Origin: Candidatus Woesebacteria bacterium
GTDB taxonomy: Bacteria > Patescibacteriota > Microgenomatia > UBA1400 > UBA1396
Length of the DNA: 64,000 nt
Assembly (NCBI GenBank): GCA_021208605.1
Contig: JAJOJK010000018.1
Location: 4,780 to 68,779 of the forward strand
Reading direction: 5' to 3'
The notes under the pieces were generated by a model, which had not been told where the DNA came from, ran no database searches, and saw nothing but the letters and a program-made list of their open reading frames with translations. How positions within the stretch are numbered: the stretch's first letter is position 1; the number at the start of each line of letters is the position of its first letter. The position numbers were made by a program, and so were the translations under genes. This document shows, piece after piece, positions 6,750-24,443 of the stretch.

Positions 6750-6751
6750 AG

Positions 6752-7051
6752 TTACTCTTCACTGTTTTCGTTATCGTCAGCGGTAATCGCTGCTTCGTTA
6801 TCGGACTCGCGCAAACGGCGTGTGATACGCGCTCGGTTTAAGTCATAGACAGTCATTTCTGCCAAGACCATGTCTCCCGGAAGGACGCGGATATGGAATC
6901 GGCGCATATTTCCGTTGAGCGTACACAGCACACTGTTGCCAATGATTTGTTCTGGACCTTCCTGTACCTCTACGCGAAACATGCGATTCGGTAAAGATTC
7001 AGTGACTACTCCTTTGATCTCAAATGTATCTTGTCGTGTATTTCCAGCCAT
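6752..7051 (-). CDS. infA: translation initiation factor IF-1 with acidic C-terminal extension
   Basis: Track ORF 6752..7090; likely start at the internal MAGNTRQDTFEIKGVVTESLPNRMFRVEV... (S1-like OB fold), followed by an extra DNEAAITADDNENSEE tail. Confidence 0.88.
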   Translation of the reverse strand: MAGNTRQDTFEIKGVVTESLPNRMFRVEVQEGPEQIIGNSVLCTLNGNMRRFHIRVLPGDMVLAEMTVYDLNRARITRRLRESDNEAAITADDNENSEE

Positions 7052-7152
7052 GTACGTAGTGTCTTTCTGACAGAACCCGGATTGTATCAAAATACGCCCA
7101 CTTTCTCAAGAGTGAGATCGTATTTCCCTACGCACGGGTATGTCCTTCCTTT

Positions 7153-7719: not shown

Positions 7720-7743
7720 GTGTTCCTCTCTTTTCTTCTCTGC

Positions 7744-9033: not shown

Positions 9034-9039
9034 TGTCTC

Positions 9040-9483
9040 TTATTGCGTTACTTTCCCACCAGCTTTTTCGATTGCTTTTCGTACGGGATTGGAAGTTTCG
9101 ATACCAGTAACAGTGACCGGAGTCTCTAACTTCACGGCGCCAATAAGGCGAGGGGTTCCGTTGCTCAAACGAATCAGGTTGGCTTCAGCAAGGCTTTCGA
9201 CGGTAATTTCAGTCAGTCCTTTAGCAACAACGTCACGCAGTTGAACTTCTTGTTTGGTCTTCAAAGAACCAAAGCGAGCTTTACCACGCAACATAGGCAA
9301 ACGCTTGATGAGCGGAAGTTGTCCACCTTCAAACCAGAGCGCTACTTTGGAAGCACCAGTACGGCTCAACTGACCTTTTTGACCACGACCAGCGGTGTGA
9401 CCACCGCGTTGTGAACCGTATCCACGGCCCACGCGCTTGGCGGAGGAAGACACAATGGATGGTAATTCTTGTAATAAACTCAT
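9040..9483 (-). CDS. rplO: 50S ribosomal protein L15
   Basis: 147 aa L15 family (GRGYGSQRGGHTAGRGQKGQ...). Confidence 0.93.
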   Translation of the reverse strand: MSLLQELPSIVSSSAKRVGRGYGSQRGGHTAGRGQKGQLSRTGASKVALWFEGGQLPLIKRLPMLRGKARFGSLKTKQEVQLRDVVAKGLTEITVESLAEANLIRLSNGTPRLIGAVKLETPVTVTGIETSNPVRKAIEKAGGKVTQ

Positions 9484-9494
9484 GTGTATCCTTG

Positions 9495-10268
9495 TTATTC
9501 AGATTTCTCGTCAGCAGCTTTTTCTTCTTTTTTAGTAGACTTTTTAGCAGCTGGCTTCTTTTCAGTTTTCTCTTCAGCGGGAGCAGCTTTTTCTTCTGCT
9601 TTGGCAGCTTTTTTCGCCTTTGGAGCTTCAGCTTTGGCAGACTCAGCTTTTTGAGCGGTCTTCTTGGCTGGTTTCTTCTCGGCTTTTTCAGCTTTCTTCG
9701 ATTTCTCGTCGGCGTCGGCCTTAGCCTTCGCTTCACGTTGCATCTCTTTTTCTTTTTCTTTGAGTTCGCGCTCTTCTTCGGCGACAGACTTCAAAGTCAT
9801 TCCGCGGAGCTCTACTATATCACGAATTTGACGTAATGCCTCAAACGTAGCGTAGACGTTGGAAGCTTTGTTGTTGGTTCCGAGAATCTTCGCTGAAATA
9901 TCACGAATACCAGCAGCTTCCACAACAGCACGCACTGGACCACCGGCGATAACACCAGATCCACGTGGGGCTGGGTTCAAGATGATACGAGCAGCACCGT
10001 GCTTTACCTCAATAGGGAAAGGAATAGTGGTTCCATCCATAGGAACGGTAAACATCTTTTTGCGAGCGCGACGAACACCTTTTTTGATAGAAGCCAGAAC
10101 ATCTGGAGCTTTACCGAGGGCAACACCAACTTGGCCTTTACGGTCACCAACCACCATTAAAACGGAGAAACCAATTTTGTTTCCACCTTTGGTCTTCTTG
10201 GAGACACGGCTTACTTGCACGACCTTCTCGTCGAATTCCCGCTGATTGCGTTGATCATTATCTCTCAT
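9495..10268 (-). CDS. rpsE: 30S ribosomal protein S5 with ~100-aa Lys/Ala/Glu-rich C-terminal tail
   Basis: 257 aa; the S5 dsRBD plus C-terminal domain runs to ~residue 155, then EEERELKEKEKEMQREAKAKADADEKSKKAEKAEKKPAKK... No rpmD (L30) gene lies between rpsE and rplO. Confidence 0.92.
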   Translation of the reverse strand: MRDNDQRNQREFDEKVVQVSRVSKKTKGGNKIGFSVLMVVGDRKGQVGVALGKAPDVLASIKKGVRRARKKMFTVPMDGTTIPFPIEVKHGAARIILNPAPRGSGVIAGGPVRAVVEAAGIRDISAKILGTNNKASNVYATFEALRQIRDIVELRGMTLKSVAEEERELKEKEKEMQREAKAKADADEKSKKAEKAEKKPAKKTAQKAESAKAEAPKAKKAAKAEEKAAPAEEKTEKKPAAKKSTKKEEKAADEKSE

Positions 10269-10342
10269 ATGTTTATCTAAAAGGATTTTCCTTCAAAGTG
10301 AAACCCGTAGGGAAGGTGAATCCTTTTTCCTTATAGTTCTTT
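10269..10342 (-). promoter_or_regulatory. conserved structured 5'-leader RNA element, copy A (upstream of rpsE)
   Basis: Fills the whole rplR-rpsE intergenic space. Plus strand ATCTAAAAGGATT...GTGAAACCCGTAGGGAAGG...AATCCTTTTTCCTTA gives a 9-bp outer helix, an inner CCTTC/GAAGG helix and a CCC-UAC-GGG mini-hairpin. Same architecture as copies B, C and D. Confidence 0.6.
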
Positions 10343-10696
10343 CTACAGTTCAATTCCTTGTTCACGGATGGTGTCAGCGACAGCTTTAACGCGGCCGTGG
10401 TAACGGTAGTATCCGCGGTCGAAAGTGACTTGCTTAACACCAGCTTGTTTGAGTTGCTCAGCAACTTGCTCAGCGGCAGCTTGAGCGCGTTCCGTCTTCG
10501 TGCCTTTGGCACCTTTGTCATAGGCGGAAGCAACGGTCAGGCTCTTGTCATCATCAATAGCTTGGATGAAGACGTGTTGATTAGAACGATAAATGGACAA
10601 ACGTGGTCGTTCGGCCGTTCCATGCAGTTTGCTGCGCACGCGGCGAGCGCGGCGAAGGCGTTGCTTTTGCAGTGCTTTTTGTTGATTACGTGTCAT
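10343..10696 (-). CDS. rplR: 50S ribosomal protein L18
   Basis: 117 aa L18 family. Confidence 0.92.
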   Translation of the reverse strand: MTRNQQKALQKQRLRRARRVRSKLHGTAERPRLSIYRSNQHVFIQAIDDDKSLTVASAYDKGAKGTKTERAQAAAEQVAEQLKQAGVKQVTFDRGYYRYHGRVKAVADTIREQGIEL

Positions 10697-10718
10697 AGTT
10701 TCCTTTTCGTCTCACTGA

Positions 10719-11270
10719 TTAGGCAGCTTTAGCGAGTGTCTTTCCTTGCTTACGACGAACTTCTTCATCTTCGTAACGAATGCCTTTACCCTTGTAAGGC
10801 TCTGGCGGACGGACTTTGCGAATGTTAGCCGCAACTTGACCAACCATGTGCTTGTCAATACCAGAGACAATAATGGTGTCGTTGCCTTCCACTCCAAAAG
10901 TAATACCTTCAACAGCATCAACTTCCACTGGGTGGGAGAATCCAACGGTCAAAGTCAGACCTTGTCCACGTTGGGCCACACGATAACCGGTACCCACGAG
11001 TTTCAAACGCTTGGTAAATCCATTGGTAACGCCTTCGACCATGTTGTTCAGCAAGCTGCGGATCAAACCGAGGTTCATGCGAGTTTGCTTAGCGTTTGGT
11101 TGTTTGGTAGCGACAACAACAGCTTCAGATTCGTTCACCTCAATAGAGATGTTGTGCACGAAGTCTTGGTGCAGTTCACCTTTGGGTCCTGTAACGGTGA
11201 AACCGGAATCAGTGACGGTTACGGTGACACCACTTGGGATGCTAACTGGTTTCTTTCCAATTTTCGACAT
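10719..11270 (-). CDS. rplF: 50S ribosomal protein L6
   Basis: Track ORF 10719..11309 overlaps rpsH; likely start is the internal MSKIGKKPVSIPSGVTV...; two L6 alpha/beta repeats. Confidence 0.9.
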   Translation of the reverse strand: MSKIGKKPVSIPSGVTVTVTDSGFTVTGPKGELHQDFVHNISIEVNESEAVVVATKQPNAKQTRMNLGLIRSLLNNMVEGVTNGFTKRLKLVGTGYRVAQRGQGLTLTVGFSHPVEVDAVEGITFGVEGNDTIIVSGIDKHMVGQVAANIRKVRPPEPYKGKGIRYEDEEVRRKQGKTLAKAA

Positions 11271-11277
11271 AGTTTCC

Positions 11278-11667
11278 TTACCAAACCTGGAAGAGTATCT
11301 CGCCACCAATTTTCTTTTGGCGAGCTTCTTTATCGGACATTACACCTTGTGAAGTAGACACCACGGCAGTACCGTATCCACCCAAAACCTGGGGGAGTTG
11401 GTCAGCAGAGCGGTAGATGCGGCGTCCAGGTTTAGACACCCGCTTTACGTCTACGACAGCTGGCTTTCCATTGATGTATCGCAAGTCAATGTTCAAGACA
11501 TCTTGTGGTTGTTGGGCTTCACGAGCGTAGCTGCTCACGTAACCACCTTCAACGAGAATTTTTACAATGTTCTCGCGAAGTTTGGACGCGGGCATAACCA
11601 CGGTCTTGTGTTTTGCCATGTACGCATTTTTAATGCGAATAATCAGATCTGCTACAGTATCAGTCAT
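11278..11667 (-). CDS. rpsH: 30S ribosomal protein S8
   Basis: 129 aa S8 family. Confidence 0.93.
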   Translation of the reverse strand: MTDTVADLIIRIKNAYMAKHKTVVMPASKLRENIVKILVEGGYVSSYAREAQQPQDVLNIDLRYINGKPAVVDVKRVSKPGRRIYRSADQLPQVLGGYGTAVVSTSQGVMSDKEARQKKIGGEILFQVW

Positions 11668-11674
11668 ATTTTCC

Positions 11675-11860
11675 TCAGAAGCTCGATTTTACCACACCGG
11701 GTAATTCACCTTTATGGGCCAACTCGCGGAAACACAAACGACACAGACCGAACTGACGCATGTATGCGTGCGGACGGCCACAAAGTGAACAACGGTTCAC
11801 ACCACGCGTCGAGTGGTCGGCGAGTCTTTTAGATTTAGCGATTTTCGATTTTTTAGCCAT
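11675..11860 (-). CDS. rpsZ: 30S ribosomal protein S14 type Z (zinc-binding short form)
   Basis: 61 aa with [23 protein letters not shown] (C4 zinc ribbon). Confidence 0.9.
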
Positions 11861-11888
11861 ATACTCTGTATGTACCTTATTGCGTTAT

Positions 11889-12437
11889 TTATTCTTCTTT
11901 TGCGAACGGCATGCCGAGGGCTTCCAAGAGAGCGAAAGATTCTTCTTGTCCAGAAGAGTTTTCCACCGTCATGGTGATTTGCAGACCACGGACACGATCA
12001 ATTTTATCGTAATCGATTTCCGGGAACACAATCTGTTCACGGAGACCAAGGCTGTAGTTACCAACTTGGTCGAAAGCAGTGCGAGACACACCACTAAAGT
12101 CTTTCAGCTGTGGCAGGACCACAGTGACCAACTTGTCGAAGAAGGCCCACATGCGCTCACCACGTAAAGTGACGGCGACACCCACTGGGTCTCCAGCACG
12201 GATTTTGAATCCCGCAATAGAAACACGAACTTGGGTAGGTTGGGGCTTCTGACCAGTAATAGCAGCAATCTGCTCCACAACTGGCTCGACTGCCTTTTCA
12301 CCTTGGGGTTCAGTACCAATACCAACGTTCACCACAATTTTGGTGAGTTTGGCGACAGCCAAGGCGTTCTCTTTGCCGAATTTCTCCTGCAAGAGAGCCA
12401 CGACTTTGTCTTGGTAGAGTTGTTTCTTACGGTTCAT
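11889..12437 (-). CDS. rplE: 50S ribosomal protein L5
   Basis: 182 aa L5 family. Confidence 0.93.
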   Translation of the reverse strand: MNRKKQLYQDKVVALLQEKFGKENALAVAKLTKIVVNVGIGTEPQGEKAVEPVVEQIAAITGQKPQPTQVRVSIAGFKIRAGDPVGVAVTLRGERMWAFFDKLVTVVLPQLKDFSGVSRTAFDQVGNYSLGLREQIVFPEIDYDKIDRVRGLQITMTVENSSGQEESFALLEALGMPFAKEE

Positions 12438-12439
12438 GT

Positions 12440-12748
12440 TTACTCAATCTTTTTGCCTGTTTTCTTAAAGACGCGAACTTTGGTGCCATCTTTTTCGATT
12501 TGGTACCCAATACGGTCCGCTTGTTTGGTCGCTTCGTTCCAGATCGCCACTTTGGCGGTTGGAAGAGCGCGTTCTTTGCGTTCACGACGACCAGCTTGAC
12601 CCATCATCGGCTTGAAGTTGCGAGTGTACATATTAGCACCCTGCACAACCACAGTCTCTGCCTCTGGATTCACCTTCAGGATTTGACCCTGGTGTCCTTT
12701 GTCTTTACCGCTGGTTACAATGACTTTGTCACCGACTTTGAACTTCAT
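12440..12748 (-). CDS. rplX: 50S ribosomal protein L24
   Basis: 102 aa, KOW motif (MKFKVGDKVIVTSGKDKGHQGQI...). Confidence 0.93.
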   Translation of the reverse strand: MKFKVGDKVIVTSGKDKGHQGQILKVNPEAETVVVQGANMYTRNFKPMMGQAGRRERKERALPTAKVAIWNEATKQADRIGYQIEKDGTKVRVFKKTGKKIE

Positions 12749-12756
12749 AGTTGTCC

Positions 12757-13131
12757 TTATAATACCTCTGGCGCGAGAGACGCTATTTTAGCATATCCGG
12801 CGTCTTTTACCTCACGGGCAATTGGTCCGAAGACACGCGTGCCCTTTGGCTTTTTGTTTTCCATATCTTCAAGCACTACAGCAGCGTTATCGTCAAAGCG
12901 AACGTAGCTCCCATCAGCACGGCGAACTTCTTTTTTAACGCGGACAATAACGGCTTTCACCATTGTGCCCTTTTTCAGTTCGGCGTTTGGTTGAGCTGAG
13001 ATGACTGAAGCGGTAACTACATCTCCGAGTGATCCAGTCGGACGACGGGAACCGCCGTGCACGTTGATCAAGCGGAGTCTGCGTGCTCCAGAGTTATCAG
13101 CGACTTGTAAAACTGTTCTCAGCTGTACCAT
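12757..13131 (-). CDS. rplN: 50S ribosomal protein L14
   Basis: 124 aa L14 family. Confidence 0.93.
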
Positions 13132-13149
13132 GTTGACTCTCTTATTCTA

Positions 13150-13389
13150 TTATTCCATCTTTTCAGTAACGACAAAGCGTTTGGTTTTGCTGATTGGTTG
13201 GCTCTCAGTCATGACAACTACGTTGCCGGCTTCAAGTTCCATACCGTCAGCGACATGTGCCAAGTAGTTCTTGGTGCGCTTCACGTATTTTTTGTAAATT
13301 GGGTGCTGCCAGTTGCGCTCGACGACGACTTTCACAGTCTTGTTGTCGATGACGTTGACTACAGTTCCCTGGATTGTTTTCTTTGCCAT
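13150..13389 (-). CDS. rpsQ: 30S ribosomal protein S17
   Basis: 79 aa S17 family. Confidence 0.92.
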   Translation of the reverse strand: MAKKTIQGTVVNVIDNKTVKVVVERNWQHPIYKKYVKRTKNYLAHVADGMELEAGNVVVMTESQPISKTKRFVVTEKME

Positions 13390-13398
13390 GTTGTCCTC

Positions 13399-13632
13399 TT
13401 ATACCTGTTCTTCAGTAGCTTGAGCAGCTTCTTTTTCACGACTGCTCATTTCAGCTTTGATCATTTTGATTGTTTGCTGAGTTTTGTAGGCCGCTCTGAC
13501 ATCAACTTCAGTACGATCCTGAAGACGTCGTTCTTGACGAGCACGAATGAGCGTTCCTTGTAGTTCACGGAGACGTTTCTGCAGCTCTTCAGTTGAAAGG
13601 GCTAACAGTTCCTGTTTCTGATCGCGCTTCAT
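13399..13632 (-). CDS. rpmC: 50S ribosomal protein L29
   Basis: 77 aa coiled-coil L29; 4-nt overlap with rplP. Confidence 0.9.
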   Translation of the reverse strand: MKRDQKQELLALSTEELQKRLRELQGTLIRARQERRLQDRTEVDVRAAYKTQQTIKMIKAEMSSREKEAAQATEEQV

Positions 13633-14045
13633 GCTTCCTCACCTTTTTTCACAAACTTTGTTTTCATTGGGATCTTATGACCAGCTTTGCGGAAGGCTTC
13701 ACGTGCCACCGTTTCTGGGACCCCAGCCAGCTCGAAAAGCACATGACCTGGCTTAATTTTGACGACGTATTCCTTAATATCACCTTTACCAGAACCCATT
13801 TTCACACCTTGTGCTTTTTGAGTCACAGGATGATCTGGGAACACACGAATCCAGAGTTTACCCATACGCTTGGTCGAACGAGCGAGCACTTTACGGGTAG
13901 CTTCAATCTGACGAGCAGAGAATTCACCGCGGTCAGTGGCTTGCAAACCAAACTCACCGAAATCAACGGAGTTACCACGTTGGGCTGTACCACGGTTCTT
14001 GCCGCGGAACATCTTTCGATATTTGGTTTTCTTTGGTTGTAACAT
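13629..14045 (-). CDS. rplP: 50S ribosomal protein L16
   Basis: 138 aa L16 family. Confidence 0.93.
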   Translation of the reverse strand: MLQPKKTKYRKMFRGKNRGTAQRGNSVDFGEFGLQATDRGEFSARQIEATRKVLARSTKRMGKLWIRVFPDHPVTQKAQGVKMGSGKGDIKEYVVKIKPGHVLFELAGVPETVAREAFRKAGHKIPMKTKFVKKGEEA

Positions 14046-14068
14046 AGCTTCCTTTGTCGTTCCGTAAC

Positions 14069-14734
14069 TTACTTGGTTTCAGCCTCGACTTCACCCTTGT
14101 TGACCCAAACCTTAATACCAACGGTACCAGATTTGGTGTGAGCCGGAGATTCGTAGTAATCAATGTTGGCGCGAATGGTTTGGGTTGGGATCGTACCTTC
14201 GTGGTATTTCTCACGACGACCAATTTCCGCACCACCGATACGACCTGAGAGCTGGATTTTGATACCCTTCGCACCAGCGTTCATAGCGCGCTCAATTGCT
14301 TGAGACACAGCACGGCGGTGTGGGTAACGCTTCGAAAGTTGGTCAGCAATACGCTCCACCACAAACTTGGCAGAAGTATCTGGGTTTTTGACCTCGACGA
14401 TTTCGTCGATGGAAACTTTCATTCCCTTTGGATCGTTTGGATTTATTTTCAAGAGCTTAGCAAGATTTTTCTTCAGGAGTTCAAGATTAGAACCACCACG
14501 ACCAATCACCACACCCGGACGAGTCACGTGCAGACGAATCTTAATCACGTTGATCGAACGCTCAATCTCAATGGTATCGAGACCCGCGTTAGACAAGTTC
14601 GCGCGGAAAAAATCGCGAATCTTCTTGTCTTCGAGCACACGTTTGGCGTAGTCGCTCGAGTTAGCGTACCAGGTAGACTTCCAAGAGAAAGTGTTGCCAA
14701 TACGGAAACCGGTTGGATTAATCTTCTGTCCCAT
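14069..14734 (-). CDS. rpsC: 30S ribosomal protein S3
   Basis: 221 aa, KH domain plus S3 C-terminal domain. Confidence 0.93.
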   Translation of the reverse strand: MGQKINPTGFRIGNTFSWKSTWYANSSDYAKRVLEDKKIRDFFRANLSNAGLDTIEIERSINVIKIRLHVTRPGVVIGRGGSNLELLKKNLAKLLKINPNDPKGMKVSIDEIVEVKNPDTSAKFVVERIADQLSKRYPHRRAVSQAIERAMNAGAKGIKIQLSGRIGGAEIGRREKYHEGTIPTQTIRANIDYYESPAHTKSGTVGIKVWVNKGEVEAETK

Positions 14735-14827
14735 ATATATCTAAAAGGTCTGTTCTTCAGCGCGGAGTCCAGGGGGGAGGGTGATACCTTTCCCGGTATT
14801 GGACCTCGTGCGAGGGTGTCCTTTTCC
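14735..14827 (-). promoter_or_regulatory. conserved structured 5'-leader RNA element, copy B (upstream of rpsC; diverged and longer)
   Basis: ATATATCTAAAAGGTCTG-TTCTTCAGCGCGGAGTCCAGGGGGGAGGGTGATACCTTTCC...CCTTTTCCTTA. Shares the flanks and the CTTCAGCG...GGG core with copy C. Confidence 0.5.
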
Positions 14828-15448
14828 TTATTCTGTTTTCTTTGTGTCTTTCTTGCTTGACTTTTTAGCAGTGGTCTTCTTTTTGGCAGGAGACTTTGTT
14901 TCAGCTTTTTTGGCTGCTGTCTTCTTGGTGGTAGACTTTTTCGTTGTTTCTTTTTTAGCGGCTGCTTTCTCAGAAGACTTGGAAGACTTCTTTACCGCTT
15001 TCTTTTCAGCAGTTTTGGTTTCTGCTTTTTCTGCTGCTGGAGCATCAGAGGCACTGGCCTCAGCGGCTTTTTCGGCCTTAGCTGGCTTTGCAGCAGCTTT
15101 TGGAGCGGCAGCTTCTTCAACGTGGAGCTCAACCAAAACGTGAGAGGTTTTCTTCTCATACGGTTTGGCGCGACCACGGGAGCCAGCGCGGAAACGCTTG
15201 TACGTTGGACCCTCATTGATCATAAGAGATTTGAGAGACAACTGTGTTTCGTTGTAGCCCATGTTGTTCACGGCGTTGGCGACGGCTTGACGAATCGTTT
15301 CATTAATGACGCGTGCACCACGTTTGTTGAGGTTCGTCAAAATTTCGTTGATCTCTGGCAGTTCACGACCGCGAACGAGATCAGCCACCGCACGCAGTTT
15401 GCGTGGAGTTTGTCGAACGTATTTCTGTATTGCTCGTACTGTTGCCAT
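14828..15448 (-). CDS. rplV: 50S ribosomal protein L22 with ~95-aa Lys/Ala/Thr/Ser-rich C-terminal tail
   Basis: 206 aa; L22 core ~110 aa followed by AAAPKAAAKPAKAEKAAEASAS...KKTTAKKSSKKDTKKTE. Confidence 0.92.
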   Translation of the reverse strand: MATVRAIQKYVRQTPRKLRAVADLVRGRELPEINEILTNLNKRGARVINETIRQAVANAVNNMGYNETQLSLKSLMINEGPTYKRFRAGSRGRAKPYEKKTSHVLVELHVEEAAAPKAAAKPAKAEKAAEASASDAPAAEKAETKTAEKKAVKKSSKSSEKAAAKKETTKKSTTKKTAAKKAETKSPAKKKTTAKKSSKKDTKKTE

Positions 15449-15458
15449 AGATTCCTTA

Positions 15459-15743
15459 TTATGTCTTCGTCAGGAGACGTTTCACAACCTTACCGTGACC
15501 GTGGAAGGTACGAGAAGGAGCGAACTCACCAAGACGGTGTCCTACCATTTCTTCACCAACATAGACTTCAATAAACTTACGACCGTTGTGCACCAAGAAC
15601 GTGTGTCCCACGAATTCTGGAGCAATCTGTGATTGACGGGCCCAAGTCTTGATTGGTTGCTTGCTGTCGCTGGCTTTTTGTGCCATGACTTTTTGCAGCA
15701 ACTTCTCGTCTACGTATGGTCCTTTTTTTGCACTTCGTGACAT
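15459..15743 (-). CDS. rpsS: 30S ribosomal protein S19
   Basis: 94 aa S19 family. Confidence 0.93.
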
Positions 15744-15771
15744 ATGTCTGTTTCCTTACTTCTCTTCGACG

Positions 15772-16605
15772 TTAGATCTTCTTGCGACGGTCTTTTACGA
15801 TGTACTTGTCAGAGTACTTCTTCTGCTTACGGGTCTTCTTACCCAAAGCTGGTTTACCCCAAGGAGTCTTCGGATGCTTCATACCAACACCGCTGCGGCC
15901 TTCACCACCACCATGTGGGTGAGCACCTGGGTGCATAGCTGTACCGCGCACACTTGGGCGAATACCAAGATGACGCTTGCGACCAGCTTTTCCGAGTTTC
16001 TGGTTTTTGTGGTCAGCGTTTCCGACTTCACCAATAGTAGCCATACCGTCTACAGGAACCATGCGGATCTCTTTAGACGGAAGCTGAATTGTAGCATATT
16101 TTTCGTCTTTTGCCTGGATCAAAGCGGCTGTGCCAGCTCCACGAACCATCTGAGCACCCTTACCAGGACGCAGTTCAATGTTGTGAATAGGCATACCAAC
16201 TGGAATATTACGCAGTGGCAAAGCATTTCCCATGGCCAGCTCAGCTTCAGGACCAGATTGGATCATTTGACCCACTTCTAAACCCTTCGGAGCCAAAATG
16301 TAGCGCTTTTCACCATCAACATAGTTGATTAAAGCAATGTTAGCGTTACGGTTTGGATCGTACTCGATTTGAGCCACTTTACCGGAAATGCCGAATTTCT
16401 CGCGCTTCCAGTCAATCATGCGGTATTTGCGCTTGGCACCACCACCACGATGACGGACAGTAATTTTACCCTGGTTATTGCGACCATTGCGACGACGAGT
16501 TCCTTTGGTAGTCAAACCCTTGACTGGGTTGTTTTCCGCCAAATTCTGCTTGTTGTCAACTCGGTTACGAGTTCCTGGTGAGGTTGGTTTCGTCTTTTTC
16601 AACAT
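15772..16605 (-). CDS. rplB: 50S ribosomal protein L2
   Basis: 277 aa L2 family. Confidence 0.93.
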
Positions 16606-16613
16606 ATGAGTCC

Positions 16614-16904
16614 TTAGAGATCAAATAATTCAATCTTTTCACCTTCTGGCAGTACGATAATAGCCTTTTTACGATCAGCTTGCTTGGCTGGACGACGCTT
16701 CGAACCGGTGCGACGCACTTTACCAGGCACAGTAATAGTCTTGATGTCTTGAACATTCACACCAAAACCAGCTTCAATAGCTTTTTTGATTTCCAGCTTG
16801 TCAGCAGAGGGAGCCACGTAGAAGGTAAAAGAATTTTCTTCTTTCGCCATGCGCAGAGACTTTTCTGTGATAACCGGAGCAATAATGACGTATGGATTTA
16901 TCAT
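16614..16904 (-). CDS. rplW: 50S ribosomal protein L23
   Basis: 96 aa L23 family. Confidence 0.92.
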
Positions 16905-17548
16905 GCTGAGGCCTTGTCTTTGTTATTGAGTAAGCGAGCTTCCAAACGATCCAAAGCTGGTTGCATAACCACGATGGTGTCAGCTTGTGCTACTTCGAGA
17001 GCATTCAAACGATCAGCGCGAGTGATAGAAACATTCGCCACGTTGGAGAAAGCATTCACCACATTTTCACGAGACTCATCGATGACGAGTAACACTTTTT
17101 GGTTGGCTTCTGCAACCTGAGCGATAAATGCCGCTGCATCTTTTGTTTTTGCGGTAATGGTATCGAGATCAGTGACCACACTGACAGCATCACGTACTGC
17201 TTGCATTGTTAAAGCATAGACAGTCGCTTTGCGAGCCATTTTGGTGGGGAGAGATTTCTTCCAGTTTTCAAAACCAGTCGGACCATGAGCAATACCACCA
17301 CCAACAAAGATCGGAGCGGTCTTCGCACCGTGACGGGCATTACCGGTACCTTTTTGGCGATAGATTTTTGCACCTGTGTGACGAACTTCACCACGACGGA
17401 GCGTGCTCGCGCCACCTTGGCGTTGGTTGGAACGGTACACATGGACTGCTTGAGTGACCAATTCTGGTTTTACGTCAGCATTGAACAGCTCATCAGAGAC
17501 AGTGATAGTGGTTGACTTCCCATCGAGGGAATATTTCTTCAGTTTCAT
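16901..17548 (-). CDS. rplD: 50S ribosomal protein L4
   Basis: 215 aa L4 family. Confidence 0.92.
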   Translation of the reverse strand: MKLKKYSLDGKSTTITVSDELFNADVKPELVTQAVHVYRSNQRQGGASTLRRGEVRHTGAKIYRQKGTGNARHGAKTAPIFVGGGIAHGPTGFENWKKSLPTKMARKATVYALTMQAVRDAVSVVTDLDTITAKTKDAAAFIAQVAEANQKVLLVIDESRENVVNAFSNVANVSITRADRLNALEVAQADTIVVMQPALDRLEARLLNNKDKASA

Positions 17549-18270
17549 GCTTGGGTCTCCTCAGTCGAGTCTTCGGTGGCAGCAACTTCGGCAGCGTTTA
17601 CGCCTAGTTCAGCCTTACTGAAATCATTCAAAGCAATGTCTTTGCCAGCGCCTTGCTTACGCAGCGTGACGATGGTGTTGTAAGCTCCAGGGATAGTACC
17701 CTTCACCCAGATGACTTGTTCGCTTGGATTGACCGCAACTACACTCACATTTTCGAGTGTAACGGTGTCGCCACCGGAACGACCAGCCATCTTTTTACCA
17801 GGCCAGACACGACCTGGAGTGGTACCGGCACCAATGGAACCAGGGGCACGTTGACGATCAGATTGACCATGGGTCTTCGGACCACCGGCAAACCCCCAAC
17901 GTTTGACCACACCAGTAAAGCCTTTGCCTTTGCTCGTAGCGGTCACCTTGACGGTATCACCAGCTTGTACCACTTCTTCTGCTAACAAAATGCGACCGGG
18001 ATTCAGTTCTTCGGTCGCGGTGGTTTCCAAAAAGACACGTTTGCCGGCTTCAATCTTCGCAGCAGCGAGCTGAGCTTGTTGAGCCTTAGCCATGTTGTGC
18101 ATCTTCTTGTCACCAAAAGCGATCTGCACTTGTGTGCTATCATCTTCTTGCGACACAGTGCGCACTACTACGTTACCGCCAATATACAACTTGGTTACGA
18201 CCAAGCGGGTACCGTTTTCGGTCCAAACTTGACGCATATCTTTCTTCTGAGCCAATACTGTGTCTACCAT
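17545..18270 (-). CDS. rplC: 50S ribosomal protein L3 (with C-terminal extension)
   Basis: 241 aa L3 family. Confidence 0.92.
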   Translation of the reverse strand: MVDTVLAQKKDMRQVWTENGTRLVVTKLYIGGNVVVRTVSQEDDSTQVQIAFGDKKMHNMAKAQQAQLAAAKIEAGKRVFLETTATEELNPGRILLAEEVVQAGDTVKVTATSKGKGFTGVVKRWGFAGGPKTHGQSDRQRAPGSIGAGTTPGRVWPGKKMAGRSGGDTVTLENVSVVAVNPSEQVIWVKGTIPGAYNTIVTLRKQGAGKDIALNDFSKAELGVNAAEVAATEDSTEETQA

Positions 18271-18293
18271 GTTTTCCTTAGTGTCGAAGTTAC

Positions 18294-18623
18294 TTAGTTC
18301 TTGATCTGAATTCCCACACCAGCGGGAAGCTCCAGATGCATTAAAGAATCAATTGTTTTGTTGGTTGGGTTAACGATGTCTAAAACACGAATGTGTGTAC
18401 GCATCTCAAAGTGCTCACGAGAGTCTTTGTCAGTGTGAGGAGATCGCAACACAGTGAAACGTTTTTTCTGTGTCGGCATTGGAATCGGACCGATTAAATC
18501 AGCGCCGCTCGCCAATACGCTCTGCATGATCTTACGTACGGCTTCATCGAGAATACGATGATCGAACGCTTTCAAACGAACGCGAATTTTATTTGCTGAG
18601 TCTTGTTTCGTGTTTTTAGCCAT
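18294..18623 (-). CDS. rpsJ: 30S ribosomal protein S10
   Basis: 109 aa S10 family. Confidence 0.93.
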
Positions 18624-18720
18624 ATATACCTAAAAGGTCTGATCTTCAGCGTGAAACCCACAGGGAAGGTCAGACCTTTTTCCTTACAGGGCCTCAAGAG
18701 AGGATGTTCCTTTTCCTTTG
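18624..18720 (-). promoter_or_regulatory. conserved structured 5'-leader RNA element, copy C (upstream of rpsJ)
   Basis: Plus strand ATATACCTAAAAGGTCTGA-TCTTCAGCGTGAAACCCACAGGGAAGG-TCAGACCTTTTTCCTTA gives a perfect 10-bp outer helix (AAAGGTCTGA/TCAGACCTTT); a second CCTTTTCCTTT tract follows at ~18708-18720. Confidence 0.6.
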
Positions 18721-18787
18721 TCATTTTGACAGACTGTGATTATAACGCATACCTGGCTTTCTGCCAAGGGGAAATGGGAGGAGATTG

Positions 18788-18864
18788 GGAAGGTTACCTT
18801 CCTTTTCAGTTTTCTCTGGAAAGGTTACCTTAAGGGAACCTTTCCAGATGTAGTTAAAGAGTAA
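18788..18864. repeat. IS200-like element left-end repeat with palindrome (hairpin ~18816-18847)
   Basis: GAAGGTTACCTTCC...TTCTCTGGAAAGGTTACCTTAAGGGAACCTTTCCAGATGTAGTTAAAGAG; a direct-repeat copy of 19367-19452. Confidence 0.65.
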
Positions 18865-18956
18865 GGCTCCCCTTCCCTATTTCAACTAAATTTTATACCC
18901 AAAGTGTTTCCAATTAAGTAAGCCCATTTCAATGTGGTTTCTCAAAATATACTTGT

Positions 18957-19322
18957 CTAATCGCATTTCCTCTTCTTTTTTTTCGATATTAGCGTAGCTT
19001 TATATGGTGTTTCAAAAACGCGACCTGAGCCACCATGTCGCCCTCGATAATACTTCCCAAAAGCTGTCATTACACTTCTCATAAGATGTTCCATGTCTCT
19101 CGAGTTTTCTTGCCATACTTTTAAGTGAAAATGATTTGGAAGAATATTAAAGGGTGATATCATAATTACCCCAGACATTTTTTTCATTTTCAGTCTTGCA
19201 ATTCTTCGAAAAACCCAAAAATCAGTGTCATCTTGAAATACGATAGATCCTGCGGCACCTCTGTTATACACGTGATAGACAGCGTTTTCATAGTATTCCT
19301 TATCAACATTTTTTTGCGGCAT
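18957..19322 (-). CDS. tnpA: IS200/IS605-family HUH tyrosine (Y1) transposase TnpA / RAYT-like
   Basis: 121 aa with YHVYNRG, the HuH motif ILPNHFHLKV and a C-terminal FGKYYRGRHGGSGRVFETPYKATLI (catalytic Tyr region). COG1943/PF01797-type signature. Confidence 0.75.
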   Translation of the reverse strand: MPQKNVDKEYYENAVYHVYNRGAAGSIVFQDDTDFWVFRRIARLKMKKMSGVIMISPFNILPNHFHLKVWQENSRDMEHLMRSVMTAFGKYYRGRHGGSGRVFETPYKATLISKKKKRKCD

Positions 19323-19366
19323 ACAGGAAATATCTCAAATAAATTGAACAGAAAAAGAACAATTTT

Positions 19367-19452
19367 AAAGGTTACCTTCTTCTTTATTTTTCTCTGGAAA
19401 GGTTACCTTAAGGTAACCCTTCCAGAGGTAGTTAAAAAGGAAGGTAACCCTA
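19367..19452. repeat. IS200-like element right-end repeat with palindrome (hairpin ~19394-19425)
   Basis: AAAGGTTACCTTCT...TTCTCTGGAAAGGTTACCTTAAGGTAACCCTTCCAGAGGTAGTTAAAAAGGAAGGTAACCC. Confidence 0.65.
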
Positions 19453-19460
19453 CAACCAAC

Positions 19461-19484
19461 AAAAAAGCCCCTCCCGGGGCTTTC
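19461..19484 (-). terminator. rho-independent terminator of tuf
   Basis: Minus strand reads AAAGCCCCGGGAGGGGCTTTTTTGTTGG: an 8-bp GC stem plus a U-tract, 35 nt downstream of the tuf stop. Confidence 0.7.
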
Positions 19485-19517
19485 TTGCTCTAAACAGATC
19501 TTTTCTGCTTAAAAATC

Positions 19518-20696
19518 TTACTCGACGATTTCGGTAATAGCACCGGCACCGACAGTCAGACCACCTTCGCGAATAGCGAAGCGGAGACCTTGCTCAAGAG
19601 CAACATTGCTGATGAGTTCGACAGTCATGTTAGCGTTGTCGCCAGGCATAACCATTTCGGTTCCTTCGGCCAACTTGATTTCACCGGTAACGTCAGTTGT
19701 ACGGATGTAGAACTGAGGACGGTATCCAGAGAAGAATGGCTTGTGACGTCCACCTTCTTCTTTGGTCAAGATAAGCACTTCAGCTTTGAACTTGTTGTGG
19801 GTCTTGAGAGAGCCAGCCTTACAGAGGACTTGACCACGTTGGACGTCGTCTTTTTCGACACCACGCAGCAAGATACCGACGTTGTCACCAGCTTCACCTT
19901 GGGTAAGTTCTTTACGGAACATTTCCACACCAGTGACGGTAGACTTCATTGGGTTATCAAAACCGAGGATTTCGATTTCGTCACCAACTTTGACCACACC
20001 GCGTTCGATACGACCGGTTACAACCGTACCACGACCCTTGATGGAGAAGACGTCTTCTACAGCCATCAAGAAAGGCTTGTCGGTTTCACGGACAGGATCT
20101 TCGATGTAGGTGTCGACAGCATCCATGAGTTCCATGACCTTGGCTTGAGCGTCGGCGTCACCTTCAAGAGCCTTGAGGGCAGACACACGAACAACTGGAG
20201 CGTTGTCACCGTCAAAACCGTATTTGGTCAAGAGTTCACGAACTTCCATTTCGACCAAGTCGAGGAGTTCTTCGTCATCAACCATGTCACACTTGTTCAG
20301 AGCGACGACCAAACGTGGAACGTTCACTTGCTTAGCCAGCAAGATGTGCTCACGTGTTTGAGGCATAGGACCATCGGTAGCAGCCACAACCAAGATAGCA
20401 CCGTCCATTTGAGCGGCACCGGTAATCATGTTCTTGATGTAGTCAGCGTGACCTGGAGCATCAATGTGAGCATAGTGACGTTTTTCAGTCTCGTACTCGA
20501 TGTGAGAAATGTTAATAGTAACACCGCGAGCCGCTTCTTCTGGAGCGTTGTCAATGTCGGTGTAACCCATCGCTTGGGCAAAACCCTTTTGAGCGAGAGT
20601 TGTAGTAATAGCCGCAGTTAACGTGGTCTTACCGTGGTCAACGTGACCAATCGTACCAATGTTAACGTGTGGCTTGGTGCGTTGGAACTGAGCCAT
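19518..20696 (-). CDS. tuf: elongation factor Tu
   Basis: 392 aa; [21 protein letters not shown] motifs. Confidence 0.95.
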
Positions 20697-20774
20697 ACTT
20701 TTTCTCCTTTATTTTTCTTTCTTTATTTCTCTGGTGAAGACCAACCGAAACGGCAGTCTCCCCTCTAGATTCTT

Positions 20775-22910
20775 TTAGGACTGCTGCTCCACAATTTGTT
20801 GAGCAATGTTGTCAGGAACGACCTCATAGTGGCTCGGCTCCATGTAGTAGGAAGCACGACCCTGAGTCATACTACGAAGAATTGTAGCATAGCTCGGCAA
20901 TTCAGCCAGCGGGACTTGACCCTTAATGACAACAGCGGTGCCTTGTTCGGTGGAACCCTGCACGAGACCGCGACGAGAAGACAAGTCGCCAATCACGTCA
21001 CCCATAAACTCTTTTGGAGTGGTGACTTCGACGCGCATAATTGGTTCGAGCAGTTGCAAACCAGCTTTACGTGCACCAGACTGAAGACCCATAGAAGCGG
21101 CCAATTTAAAGGCAATTTCTGAAGAGTCAACATCGTGGTAACTTCCATCGTAGAGGGTAACCTTCATGTCGACCATTGGGTAGCCAGCCATAACACCGTT
21201 CGCCATAGCTTCTTCAACACCTTTTTGCACTGGAGTAATAAATTCCTTTGGAATCGCACCACCAGTGATAGCGTTGACGAACTCGAAACCAGTACCGCGG
21301 TCCATTGGTTCCAAACGAAGGTACACGTGACCGTATTGACCACGACCACCGGACTGCTTGATGTATTTGGATTCTTGCTCGGTAGGAGCTTTAATGGTTT
21401 CGCGGTAGGCAACTTGTGGAGCACCGACGTTGGCGTCCACTTTGAATTCACGCTTCATACGATCAACGATGATTTCCAAATGGAGTTCACCCATACCAGC
21501 AATAATGGTTTGGTTGGTGTCGTGGTTGACCTTAACCTGGAAGGTTGGATCTTCTTCAGACAACTTCGCCAAAGCCATACCCATTTTTTCTTGGTCAGAC
21601 TTGGTAGCTGGTTCGATAGCCAAAGAGATAACTGGTTCAGCAAAGGTAATACCTTCCAAAACAATTGGAGCGCTTTCTTCACAGAGGGAGTCACCAGTTC
21701 GGGTAGCTTTCAAACCGACCAAAGCAACGATTTCACCAGCATAGGCTGCTTGGATTTCTTCACGTTGGTTCGCGTGCATTAAGAGCACACGACCGACACG
21801 TTCCTTCTCTTTTTGGGTTGCGTTGTAGATGTATGAACCAGCTTCGAGCTTACCAGAGTAAATACGAGCATAGGTGATACGACCCACGTGTGGATCGGTC
21901 TGCACCTTGAAAGCCAACATAGCCAGAGGTTCGGTTGGAACCAATTGACGAGTGACTTCTTCACCCGTGTCTGGGTTGGTACCGGTAATGTGGTCCACAT
22001 CTTGTGGAGATGGCAGGTAGTCAACAATTGCGTCGAGCAATGGTTGGATACCCATGTTCTTCAAGGCAGAACCACAGAACATTGGCACGAGTTCATAGTT
22101 AATGACCGCTTTGCGGAGAGCTTTCTTAAGTTCAGCCACGCTGATTTCTTCACCCTCGAGGTATTTATTCATGAGTTCTTCGTCGGTTTCGACAATCATT
22201 TCCACGAGCTCGGCGCGTTTTTCTTCGGCCTTAGCTCGGAACTCTTCTGGAACGTCAATCACTTCATATGGAGTAGAAGCTTCTTGGTCAGCCCAGTGAA
22301 GCGCTCTCATTTCGAGCAACTGCACTAAACCGCGGAACTCGTTCTCGGCACCCATTGGCATAACCATAGGAGCTGGCGTAACACCAAATTTCTCTTTGAC
22401 GTCACCAACCACGAAATCAAAGTTGGCACCAACTTTGTCCATCTTGTTGACAAAACAGAGACGAGGCACGTGGTACTTGTCAGCTTGACGCCAAACGGTT
22501 TCAGATTGAGACTGCACACCTTTGTCGGCGTCGAGCACTGTCACACCACCATCGAGCACACGCAGAGAACGCTCCACCTCAGCGGTGAAGTCGACGTGAC
22601 CTGGTGTGTCAATAATGTTAATGCGATGATCCGTTTGCGGCATCAAAGTTTGTTCGAGAACTGGAGTCCAGAAAGTTGTGGTGGCCGCGGAAACAATGGT
22701 AATACCACGTTCACGCTCTTGCTCCATCCAGTCCATGGTGGCTTCACCTTCGTGAACCTCACCAATTTTGTAGGATTTACCGGTGAAGTATAAAATACGT
22801 TCGGTCGTGGTGGTTTTACCGGCATCAATGTGCGCGATAATACCAATGTTACGAATCCGGTCGAGCGGAAGGTTGCGGTCGTCAGTCTTGACTGTTTGTT
22901 GCGTGGCCAT
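20775..22910 (-). CDS. fusA: elongation factor G
   Basis: 711 aa; [13 protein letters not shown]-loop and EF-G domains II-V. Confidence 0.95.
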
Positions 22911-23039
22911 AAATATCTAAAAGGATTTTCCTGCAGATGTGTAACCCGAAGGGCAGGTGAATCCTTTTCCCTTATAGATTACTTCTTGTGTATTTCCTTT
23001 TCCTCTATATTTTCTTTTTTCTCTATTTCTATTTCTAGC
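22911..23039 (-). promoter_or_regulatory. conserved structured 5'-leader RNA element, copy D (upstream of fusA; core ~22911-22975)
   Basis: ATAAATATCTAAAAGGATT-TTCCTGCAGATGTGTAACCCGAAGGGCAGG-TGAATCCTTTTCCCTTA. The outer helix is identical to copy A; the inner helix has the compensatory pair CCTGC/GCAGG; the mini-hairpin is CCC-UUC(G)-GGG. Confidence 0.6.
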
Positions 23040-23516
23040 TTACCATCGGAAGTGAGCAAATGCTTTGTTAGCATCGGCCATCTTGTGCGTGGTGATTTTC
23101 TTCTGGAAGGCTCCGCCTTCTTCTTTGAGGGCGTCCATCATTTCAGCAGCCAGCTTCTCAGCGAAGGTGTGGTAGGAACGATTAGAACGCTTGTTGGCTT
23201 CGTTAATCAGCCAGCGAATAGCCAAAGAAGAACCACGGCGGTCAGAGACCGGCATAGGCACTTGGTAAGAAGCACCACCGACACGACGGGAGCGAACTTC
23301 CATCTGTGGGGTAATTTGTTGGAGCACCTCTTCCAGAACGTCGAGGGCTTTTCGGTTTAAGGTTTGGGCGACGAGATCTAAAGCACCATACACTTGCTTT
23401 TGAGCAGCAGTCTTTTTACCGTCTCGCATGGCTCGGTTAATGAGGCGAGCGACGACGACCGAGTTAAACTTCGGATCAGCTTTGACATCACGTCTGGGGA
23501 ATCTTTTTGCGCGCAT
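23040..23516 (-). CDS. rpsG: 30S ribosomal protein S7
   Basis: 158 aa S7 family. Confidence 0.93.
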   Translation of the reverse strand: MRAKRFPRRDVKADPKFNSVVVARLINRAMRDGKKTAAQKQVYGALDLVAQTLNRKALDVLEEVLQQITPQMEVRSRRVGGASYQVPMPVSDRRGSSLAIRWLINEANKRSNRSYHTFAEKLAAEMMDALKEEGGAFQKKITTHKMADANKAFAHFRW

Positions 23517-23557
23517 TGTTTGTCTTTCTTATTTCTCTTCAAAAATTACTAACTTGA

Positions 23558-23971
23558 TTAAGCCTTTGGTTTCTTAGTACCGTACTTCGAACGAGAAGTG
23601 CGACGTTTTTCGACACCAGCGGTATCGTACTTACCACGCACAATGTGATACTTCACACCAGGTAAGTCTTTTACACGACCACCACGCACCAACACAATGC
23701 TGTGTTCAGCGAGGTTGTGACCTTCACCTTGAATGTAAGCAGTGACTTCCATACGGTTCGACAAACGAACACGAGCCACTTTACGCAAAGCGGAGTTAGG
23801 TTTCTTTGGAGTCATGGTTTTTACCAATGTACACACACCACGCTTTTGTGGGTTAGCGGTTTTTACCACTTGGTTTTTCACCGCGTTAAAAGAACGGCGT
23901 AAAGCCTGGGCTTTCACCTTAGTTGGTTTCGACTTGCGACCTTTACGGATCAGTTGATTGATCGTTGGCAT
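23558..23971 (-). CDS. rpsL: 30S ribosomal protein S12
   Basis: 137 aa S12 family ([11 protein letters not shown]...). Confidence 0.93.
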
Positions 23972-24443
23972 GGATCTTTCCTTTTTTTCTTTGAAAAGAA
24001 GTTCTTTTCAGTTTATTCGTTCAGGTGGAGAAGTGACAAAACAAAAAAAATGTTCCGGTATTACTCAAGAATTTCGCTTGGGAAATTCCTGTCAACTTCA
24101 CACCTTGAGACATGTATTGTATCAGAAAAAACAACTTACACAAGACTACCCATCCATTGTCCTGTAAAAAAAAGATACGTATACTGCTCTTACCATGCCA
24201 CACACAGAAAACCCTGGCCAACAGAGCGCCGAAATGAGAAATTTTACTGAGGTGCTTCATGAAACCAAAAATATACTCTTACAACTTGCTCAACATCATC
24301 CTCATGAATCTCAGCTTGATCTCAAAACAATTGAATAGGCGGCAGAATTTTTAGAAAAATACGTACACAGACTCACCGACCGAGAAAGACTGCAATCATT
24401 CTCCAGAGATCCCGAACGCTGGTACCTCGCTTTTTTTGCCGTT

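Follow-up and report, generated by a model that had tools for sequence, protein, structure and literature searches.

A palindromic hairpin repeat abutting the start codons of four translation genes in a Woesebacteria genome, and its possible role as a split ribosome-binding site

Introduction

What is the same small hairpin doing directly upstream of four different translation genes in one genome? The question is raised by a stretch of 64,000 nt from a Candidatus Woesebacteria bacterium (GenBank assembly GCA_021208605.1, contig JAJOJK010000018.1, positions 4,780 to 68,779 of the forward strand), which we analysed whole and refer to as the window. Its minus strand carries the usual cluster of rpsL, rpsG, fusA and tuf, then rpsJ through rplQ, and four segments, each running up to the start codon of rpsE, rpsC, rpsJ or fusA, share one hairpin-forming element. 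A first-pass annotation, made from the letters alone, took the element for a selected RNA structure and offered three readings that need not exclude one another: a discontinuous ribosome-binding site, a protein-controlled attenuator, and an operator or processing signal by which one trans-acting factor would tune four blocks of genes together. We find that the element is a young, genus-restricted, duplicative family of palindromic hairpin repeats and not an ancient or conserved riboregulator. Where it stands before a gene, it may act as a hairpin-bridged split ribosome-binding site of the type known from phage T4 genes 38 and 25, a reading that we hold tentatively, as something close to an even call.

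Results

Four copies of one element

Pfam confirms S5, S3, S10 and EF-G as the products of the genes downstream of the elements, and also L22, L18, S7 and IF-1. The same DNA is present in the NCBI metagenome-assembled genome (MAG) GCA_021208155.1 and in Logan assemblies of three SRA runs; as the element copies are identical across these independent same-species assemblies, they are no assembly artefact. Indels are present elsewhere in the window assembly.

A repeat finder groups the four sites on its own (families D2/D3). A covariance model, seeded with copies A, C and D, two orthologs from a sister species (L085) and one metagenomic copy, with copy B left out, was searched with filters off. 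Over the 64-kb window it returned exactly four copies, at 90.4 bits (A), 85.8 bits (D), 80.7 bits (C) and 30.7 bits (B; E 9e-6), and beyond these and their antisense images no match was better than E 0.1. All four lie on the minus strand, in mRNA sense, and end 8-10 nt 5' of the ATG of rpsE (A), rpsC (B), rpsJ (C) and fusA (D). By a rough estimate, random intergenic placement would bring four of four copies against an ATG with p ~1e-7.

The unit reads 5'-YUAUAAGG(N)AAAAGG, a variable stem, a conserved apical CC(UNCG)GG with GGGUUUCAC, the returning stem and CCUUUU(A/G)G(A/G)UAU. Its core is about 62-65 nt, and it reaches ~100 nt with an upstream module made of a purine tract, AAGGAAAAGGA, and a CCUC-N4-GAGG mini-hairpin. 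This module is common to B, C, D and a copy in the relative L097 (degenerate in D and L097) and resembles the 5' half of the element, which argues for a full unit of ~100 nt. The module also occurs alone after the adk stop codon (7128-7160, minus strand) as AAAAAGGAAGGACAUACCC(GUGCGUA)GGG, where it is followed by a promoter-like site (7109-7081; TTGAGA, 17 nt, TACAAT, extended TG) and an infA 5' untranslated region (UTR) without a Shine-Dalgarno (SD) sequence.

Copy A, of type I, makes up the whole rplR-rpsE intercistronic leader (10269-10342, minus strand; recognised by sequence, fold and a covariance model core at 10275-10336). Behind its UAAGGA tract (10333-10328), the outer helix pairs AAAAGGAUU (10327-10319) with AAUCCUUUU (10287-10279) and the inner helix CCUUC (10316-10312) with GAAGG (10294-10290), enclosing a CC(UACG)GG mini-hairpin (10311-10304); the spacer AGAUAAACAU (10278-10269) leads to the rpsE AUG (10268-10266). 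The L085 ortholog differs by a single A-U to G-U change. Copy D, also type I, lies in the rpsG-fusA leader (22911-23006, minus strand; sequence, fold and covariance model). It comprises a degenerate upstream module AGAGGAAAAGGAAAUACAC (23006-22988), the tract UAAGGG (22974-22969), the same outer helix AAAAGGAUU (22968-22960) with AAUCCUUUU (22927-22919), an inner helix CCUGC/GCAGG, a CC(UUCG)GG mini-hairpin, and the spacer AGAUAUUU (22918-22911) before the fusA AUG (22910-22908); its L085 ortholog has one extra A.

Copy C, of type II, lies before rpsJ (18624-18719, minus strand; sequence, fold and covariance model). Its upstream module AAAGGAAAAGGA with CCUC(UCUU)GAGG (18719-18689) is followed by UAAGGA (18686-18681), an 11-bp outer helix of AAAAGGUCUGA (18680-18670) with UCAGACCUUUU (18642-18632), the spacer AGGUAUAU (18631-18624) and the rpsJ AUG (18623-18621). 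Copy B, degenerate and nearest to type II, occupies the rplV-rpsC leader (14735-14830, minus strand) and is recognised by sequence and by the covariance model despite its absence from the seed. Its upstream module UAAGGAAAAGGA and CCUC(GCAC)GAGG hairpin span 14830-14801, the UAA of the module being the rplV stop codon; the decayed element proper (14801-14739), with CCUUUU at 14748-14743, is followed by the spacer AGAUAUAU (14742-14735) and the rpsC AUG (14734-14732). Only the 3' half and a 6-bp AAAGGU/ACCUUU base fit the model in B, which is without the apical motif.

The architecture proposed in the first-pass annotation is therefore present as described at all four sites, and the repeat finder and covariance model agree with it, although only A, C and D are clean copies. 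Some details change. The inner helix was given as CCUUC/GAAGG in A and C and CCUGC/GCAGG in D; A and D hold, but C has 4 bp (CUUC/GAAG), not 5. The mini-hairpin drawn as CCC-N3/4-GGG with a UNCG-like loop exists, with CC(UNCG)GG as its true core, and the last spacer, put at 5-7 nt, is 4-6 nt between AGAU/AGGU and AUG.

The annotation had also placed all four copies on one polycistron of ~21 kb. This does not hold, for tuf is separated from rpsJ by a strong promoter (18767-18739), a transposase-like gene and a terminator-like hairpin. The promoter is a sigma-70-type site of the S10 operon (TTGGCA-17 nt-TATAAT; 18739-18767, minus strand), the best promoter match in 6000-25000 at 11/12 positions, and its sequence is kept in L001, L002, L085, L086, L090, L091, L092, L093 and L103. 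Its position puts copy C within a 5' UTR of ~110 nt, and the break at tuf-rpsJ means that C is a 5' UTR element and A, B and D are intercistronic.

A supported helix that both strands can form

In the helix, a 2-nt internal loop separates the outer stem (9-11 bp) from the inner one (4-5 bp), which is topped by the apical CC(UNCG)GG; ~10 unpaired nt follow this mini-hairpin. Across eight sequences, 85% of cells in the helix are paired, versus 34-61% when the 3' partner is slid by 1-3 columns, and 7 of the 18 pairs show a compensatory change on both sides. In the outer stem, AU/UA/UA in type I stands against UA/CG/UA in type II; in the inner stem, UA against GC. The apical 20 nt are nearly invariant between the subtypes (18/20, A versus C), and the outer stem is altered on both strands. 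Covariation in two helices, as first proposed, is thus upheld.

Its use as proof of an RNA structure over a relic repeat is not. Of the seven copies folded, five give an antisense strand whose fold is at least as good, so that there is no thermodynamic preference for the mRNA strand, and covariation here cannot tell RNA structure and palindromic DNA repeat apart. The single strand-specific sign is the cUNCGg-type loop, found on the mRNA-sense strand only (UACG, UUCG, UGCG, UUCG). Other strand cues conflict: the C-A mismatch of A and D turns into a G-U pair when the opposite strand is read, whereas the U-G change in L085 favours the mRNA strand. Fold energies are -15.7 (A), -23.1 (C) and -17.7 (D) kcal/mol; set against shuffled controls, A (z -1.6), C (z -3.76) and D (z -2.0) do modestly better and B (z -0.86) does not.

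Distribution among relatives

The first-pass annotation expected further copies upstream of translation genes in related genomes. Copies do occur in relatives, with a site-by-site patchiness within the genus. The nearest species representatives in GTDB (rplB 63-77% identical; ~70% DNA identity in the two measured) lack the element and have short junctions, for example TAAAAGGAAAAATAACAACATG before rpsE and GCATAAGGTATG before rpsC. Closer relatives were fetched via S10 and S5 homologs. L085, at 85% DNA identity to the window, has near-identical copies A and D, no B and a different hairpin leader at rpsJ. L091 (80%) has no copy at rpsJ, rpsC or rpsE, the three sites that its contig covers. L092 and L100, from one MAG (73-76%), have none at rpsE and yet another long leader at rpsJ. 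In L097/L098 (77%), rpsE is preceded by a copy (63.7 bits) with the type II outer stem, as in C, and the upstream module; this L097 copy is nearer to C (77%) than to A (74%). L099 (74%) carries a 43-nt short variant at rpsE, then a canonical GGAG. Copy B is absent in L085, L091 and L093, where the rplV stop codon overlaps the rpsC start.

A scan of metagenomes with a pattern fitting all four copies gave one true homolog, L094, and one A/T-rich chance match, L095; a scan of viral contigs for the element gave no match. The L094 copy is of type I and lies 6 nt after a tRNA-Val gene, antisense to the tRNAs, with no gene start following and before a promoter-like TTGAGG-16 nt-TATAAT that precedes tRNA-Phe. 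L094 and L097 come from the same metagenome. L094 also contains homologous spacers of ~130-150 nt after the two tRNA-Leu genes of its tRNA cluster (1295-1447 and 1533-1665), a local duplication unrelated to the element.

An identity matrix separates two subfamilies: type I with A, D and L094 (82-90%) and type II with C and L097 (77%), B being an outlier. Copies A and D are each 97-98% identical between the window species and L085, and the differences between A and D are the same in both species, so the A/D duplication predates the split of these species. We dismissed an excess of conservation of A over its flanks between the window and L085, as the flanking coding DNA, judged by eye, is about as conserved.

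Leaders unrelated to the element vary in this group as well. In rpsJ, relatives have unrelated or short leaders after a conserved UTR start. When the rpsJ 5' UTRs are compared (window 18624-18735; L085 ~9960-10057; L092 ~740-842; L103 ~510-614; L086 ~9920-10000), conservation extends throughout the group over the promoter and some 15 nt at the start of the transcript. What follows is hypervariable: some species have 14-25 nt, others ~70-110 nt made up of unrelated hairpins, although S10 itself is 95-98% identical among the closest. Such leaders mislead gene callers, and S10 is therefore N-terminally extended or uncalled in several assemblies. In L097 (4107-4190; also in L098), the spacer between S5 and rplO holds a separate 85-nt leader before rplO, which begins UAAGGAAAAG and forms several small hairpins; the window junction at rplO is a plain TAACAAGGATACACATG, making this another leader expansion in the genus.

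A duplicative repeat family

That the repeat is young follows from the patchy sites, the subtype swap at rpsE, the tRNA-spacer copy and the absence from the nearest GTDB representatives. Transposition and ectopic recombination between leaders are equally plausible as the route by which it is copied into transcribed spacers; recombination has this standing because the rpsJ leader is replaced wholesale and rpsE holds different subtypes in different species. Comparison of filled and empty sites at rpsE, rpsC, rpsJ and fusA revealed no target-site duplication and no clean insertion boundary, and after its conserved 5' UTR start the rpsJ leader is replaced, not simply interrupted. The arms AAAAGGAUU/AAUCCUUUU with their UAU...AUA flanks are inverted repeats, but they are identical to the RNA helix and differ between the subtypes.

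A candidate for a mobilising enzyme is encoded nearby. Between tuf and rpsJ (18957-19322, minus strand), 270 nt from copy C, lies a gene resembling a repetitive extragenic palindromic (REP)-associated tyrosine transposase (RAYT) or IS200-like Y1 transposase. It matches NCBIfam REP_Tyr_transpos at E 8e-9, below the cut-off, and its L085 ortholog matches Pfam Y1_Tnp at 28.7 bits against a cut-off of 23. A protein of 144 aa is encoded in L081/L082, against 121 aa read from the window copy, which contains two additional A's. Palindromic repeats of 84 nt flank the gene (18790-18873 and 19368-19451; GGTAACCTTAAGGTAACC core), and in L085, L092 and L101-L103 both gene and flanks are found at the same place, their stems covarying; from L091 the gene is missing. 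We nevertheless regard a link between this gene and the element as not established, as the flanking palindromes share no more than a loose AAAGG...CCTTT flavour with it (model E 0.1-1.4). Two other classes of repeat were dismissed on anatomy: an integron attC site, there being no R'/R'' boxes, and a CRISPR repeat, there being no array.

A candidate split ribosome-binding site

The first-pass reading that we retain as the best mechanistic fit is the discontinuous ribosome-binding site. Of 52 gene starts in the window, 29 show an AAGGA-type SD sequence 3-9 nt from the ATG (mode 4-5; one lies at 11), and most ribosomal-cluster genes are among them. Upstream of the four genes that carry the element, no AAGG, AGGA, GGAG or GAGG motif occurs 3-14 nt from the ATG. 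What they do have, in A, C and D, is UAAGG(A/G) 58-62 nt upstream of the AUG, and the lowest-energy folds of these three copies put the helix directly 3' of that tract; in the predicted folds of A, B and C, the UAAGG is unpaired and the AUG region open. Between helix and AUG, copies and species alike keep a spacer of 8-10 nt. Element-free orthologous sites (L091, L100, L001, L002) read stop codon, AAGGA, 4-6 nt, ATG, an ordinary junction that places the insert between an SD-type tract and the ATG.

On this anatomy we propose that the unpaired UAAGG(A/G) at the 5' foot of the helix would serve as the only SD-like sequence of the four genes. Folding of the hairpin would loop out ~50 nt and bring the tract to an effective 8-11 nt from an AUG that lies in a putatively unstructured, A/U-rich stretch. 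An insert that carries its own SD-like tract and closes on itself could for that reason be tolerated before genes that are essential and highly expressed, as initiation would survive it. Tight translational coupling would, at A, B and D, give way to an independent initiation site.

Comparison of rpsE sites fits this proposal. L099 has a weak UAAGAA and a canonical GGAG 5 nt from the ATG, L097 has UAAGGA and a partial GGAU, and the window has UAAGGA and no downstream SD; this suggests a complementary trend, the upstream tract being weak where a normal SD follows and intact where none does. Moreover, unrelated leaders at L103 rpsJ, L092 rpsJ and L099 rpsE are framed alike, a purine tract being paired with a U-tract immediately upstream of the AUG, as expected if only self-closing inserts are tolerated between SD and AUG.

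Several observations weigh against a split site. At 8-11 nt, the effective spacing falls at the upper end of what this genome shows. Copy C has an AGG 4 nt before its AUG that might be a weak local SD. The L094 copy keeps its UAAGG with no gene following, so the tract belongs to the repeat and was not selected leader by leader. Close relatives manage without the element at the same genes. The gain in folding energy over shuffled sequences is modest, and nil for B, and a palindrome at the DNA level accounts for the covariation equally well. The mechanism itself is one that we infer from anatomy.

In a rival account, the element is a selfish or neutral palindromic repeat, MITE-like (miniature inverted-repeat transposable element) or REP-like and possibly moved by a Y1/HUH transposase that acts on hairpins in DNA, with no positive role and surviving only where it does little harm; the genes would then rely on SD-less initiation at the open, A/U-rich AGAUAUAU-AUG region or on weak local signals. 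Presence and absence site by site among species at 73-85% DNA identity, two subtypes with a different one at rpsE in another species, the copy antisense to tRNAs, the decay of B and the nearly equal folding of both strands all agree with it. So do the RAYT/IS200-like gene and its palindromes near C, with L091, which lacks that gene, also lacking the element at its three covered sites. About 44% of window genes have no SD-like motif at 3-14 nt, so SD-less initiation is common here. Yet all four copies abut a start codon in sense with the same 8-10-nt spacer, a chance event of the order given above unless selection or targeting is at work, and neither a target-site duplication nor a clean empty-site boundary was found, the rpsJ leader being replaced. 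The palindromes flanking the transposase-like gene differ in sequence from the element, and the UNCG-type loops are specific to the mRNA strand. The near-identity of A and D in two species also weighs against it, though flanking coding DNA is about equally conserved. On balance we consider a purely selfish or neutral repeat unlikely.

Known families and signals

The claim that the element is no known ribosomal-protein leader was borne out. At gathering score, Rfam matched one tRNA in the window and nothing at the elements, and at E<=1 over 10100-23200 no match overlapped any of them. The Nus-factor boxA has the consensus GCUCUUUAACAA; no match with <=2 mismatches was found at any element and the count over the window equals chance, and we rejected a boxA site.

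The attenuator reading, which had been based on a terminal U4 tract, proved weak. None of the four elements is among 40 terminator-like calls in our terminator scan, and where the window's clear terminators combine a short loop on a G+C-rich stem with five or six U, the elements have only four U. More broadly, the element might be a signal for RNA processing, stability or attenuation, its interrupted helix of ~16-18 bp serving as an RNase III-type site, an exonuclease barrier or a weak attenuator that sets operon stoichiometry. Repeated RNase III hairpins between the early genes of phage T7 and transcribed ERIC or Correia repeats are comparable. The positions of the copies would suit such a role, A, B and D being intercistronic and C in a 5' UTR, as would the A-tract and U4 that frame the helix much like the outer frame of this genome's terminators, and the apical region is more conserved than the covarying outer stem when A is compared with C. 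The reverse-oriented L094 copy lies exactly between the tRNA-Val 3' end and the promoter-like site of tRNA-Phe, where a terminator or processing hairpin is expected. All four U's can pair with the A-tract, however, whereas clear terminators here and in L094 are G+C-rich with a short loop and five to seven U. The promoter scan found no promoter-like site inside any of the four elements and none follows A, B or D, so that true termination would starve essential downstream genes. RNase III cleavage is not predictable from sequence, and a processing signal leaves the constant distance to the AUG and the missing local SD unexplained. We regard this explanation as distinctly unlikely.

Even less probable, in our judgement, is a shared operator, at which a trans-acting ribosomal or other RNA-binding protein would recognise the apical CC(UNCG)GG and GGGUUUCAC and co-regulate S5, S3, S10 and EF-G. 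The near-invariance of the apical 20 nt, next to an outer stem changed on both strands, is what such an operator predicts, and within the window the element stands at translation genes only; as no known leader family matched, the operator would be new. But the set of genes varies between close species: L085 has A and D, L097 has rpsE, with an unrelated hairpin leader before rplO, and L091 has none at three sites. A copy sits in a tRNA spacer, B lacks the apical motif, and the conservation may merely reflect the youth of the copies. The patchiness, the different subtype at rpsE in a relative and the L094 copy also tell against the original proposal of a conserved operator tuning four blocks of genes.

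A combined scheme would make the element a portable split-ribosome-binding-site cassette that is duplicative, carries its own SD tract, spreads among translation genes by replacing stop-SD-start junctions and is kept because its hairpin loops out; the invariant apical CC(UNCG)GG and GGGUUUCAC might additionally be a handle for a trans-acting factor. We think this fuller scheme unlikely. If it were true, each gene that acquires a copy would join a common translational control circuit, rewired between sister species.

Neighbouring features

Other features of the window bear on its assembly and on the variability of this gene cluster. On the minus strand, rpoC and rpoB (26238-29992 and 29995-33413) each appear as two open reading frames (ORFs) in different frames, although the protein sequence carries on past the junction in another frame; relatives have rpoC as one ORF of ~1250 aa. 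The split rpoC/rpoB ORFs and the indels in the transposase-like gene suggest indel errors of assembly and not truly split genes. S5 (9495-10268, 257 aa) and L22 (14828-15448, 206 aa) have long Lys/Ala-rich C-terminal tails, the length of which differs between close relatives and assemblies (S5 208-265 aa; L22 183-230 aa). Homopolymer differences shift the S5/L22 frame in some assemblies, and the L081 L22 ORF then runs into copy B. Finally, the fusA-tuf spacer (20697-20774, minus strand) contains a small hairpin, GAGACUGCCGUUUCGGUUGGUCUU, upstream of tuf, then a strong AAAGGAG SD; the hairpin is kept in L085 with a loop change from UUUCG to UUGUG.

Discussion

The closest mechanistic parallels to the proposed split site are phage T4 genes 38 and 25, where a hairpin brings SD and AUG from 22 nt apart to 5 nt and from 27 nt to 11 nt, respectively (PMC3014915). 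Here too an SD-type tract is too far away linearly and a hairpin would bridge the distance, from about 58-62 to about 8-11 nt; apart from the AGG before the rpsJ AUG, no SD-like motif stands at the normal position, and, as with gene 25, the arrangement is confined to a shallow clade of close relatives. The T4 cases, however, are single-gene, non-repeated and experimentally proven, whereas ours is predicted. They also close a gap of only 22-27 nt, whereas the present element is a multi-copy hairpin of ~50 nt that brings its own SD-like tract and occurs away from start codons as well, as in L094.

As a repeat, the element recalls Neisseria REP2 and the Borrelia IR, dispersed repeats directly upstream of ORFs that carry a ribosome-binding site up to the ATG and internal inverted repeats predicted as stem-loops (PMC3184786). 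The likeness extends to a position immediately upstream of several genes, an RBS-like tract (RBS, ribosome-binding site), an end at the ATG and a stem-loop. Those repeats carry a promoter, however, whereas these elements contain no promoter-like site; their known ribosome-binding sites are not split by stem-loops; and REP2 marks co-regulated virulence genes, whereas here core translation genes are concerned. The phyla are unrelated, and no relationship in sequence is expected.

Small, near-palindromic, intergenic, co-transcribed repeats with filled and empty sites and subfamilies are also typical of MITEs and transcribed palindromes such as Correia/NEMIS, ERIC, RUP and MIRU (PMC3184786). Unlike these, the present family shows no target-site duplication, and we found no transposase that matches a defined terminal inverted repeat. 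As far as sampled, copies are few (four in 64 kb and one in a relative's tRNA spacer), the window copies are strictly in sense at a fixed distance from the AUG, and the exchange of subtypes at a single site points to recombination between leaders no less than to transposition. With REP/REPIN-RAYT systems it shares a nearby RAYT/IS200-like Y1 gene with flanking palindromes and the covarying stems typical of REPs. In contrast to those systems, the element is longer than typical REPs, lacks a conserved GTAG-type 5' tetranucleotide and differs in sequence from the palindromes that flank the gene (GGTAACCTTAAGGTAACC core; E 0.1 or worse). It likewise resembles ribosomal-protein leaders (the E. coli S10/L4, S7, S8 and S4 operators and the Rfam r-leaders) in being a structured RNA in leader or intercistronic space, including the S10 5' UTR. 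It differs from them in matching no Rfam family, in placing the same module at four genes instead of being gene-specific and in being limited to few species.

The claim of a conserved regulator of several operons is thus not supported. The split site is an attractive reading that experiment can address directly. Empty sites, a short variant, two subtypes and four paralogs together make up a compact natural test set for the distance over which, and the structures by which, a 30S subunit can bridge SD and start codon. If the element is merely a tolerated selfish repeat, it holds a caution: covariation among paralogous palindromic repeats is by itself no proof of a regulatory RNA.

If the hairpin does bridge a split site, this would be, to our knowledge, the first multi-copy example in a cellular genome, such sites having so far been established for single phage T4 genes. 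It would show small repeats to be capable of inserting themselves between SD and start codon in genes that are both essential and highly expressed. Translational coupling would then have been remodelled inside the most conserved operons of bacteria, within one genus of the little-studied Patescibacteria, or candidate phyla radiation (CPR).

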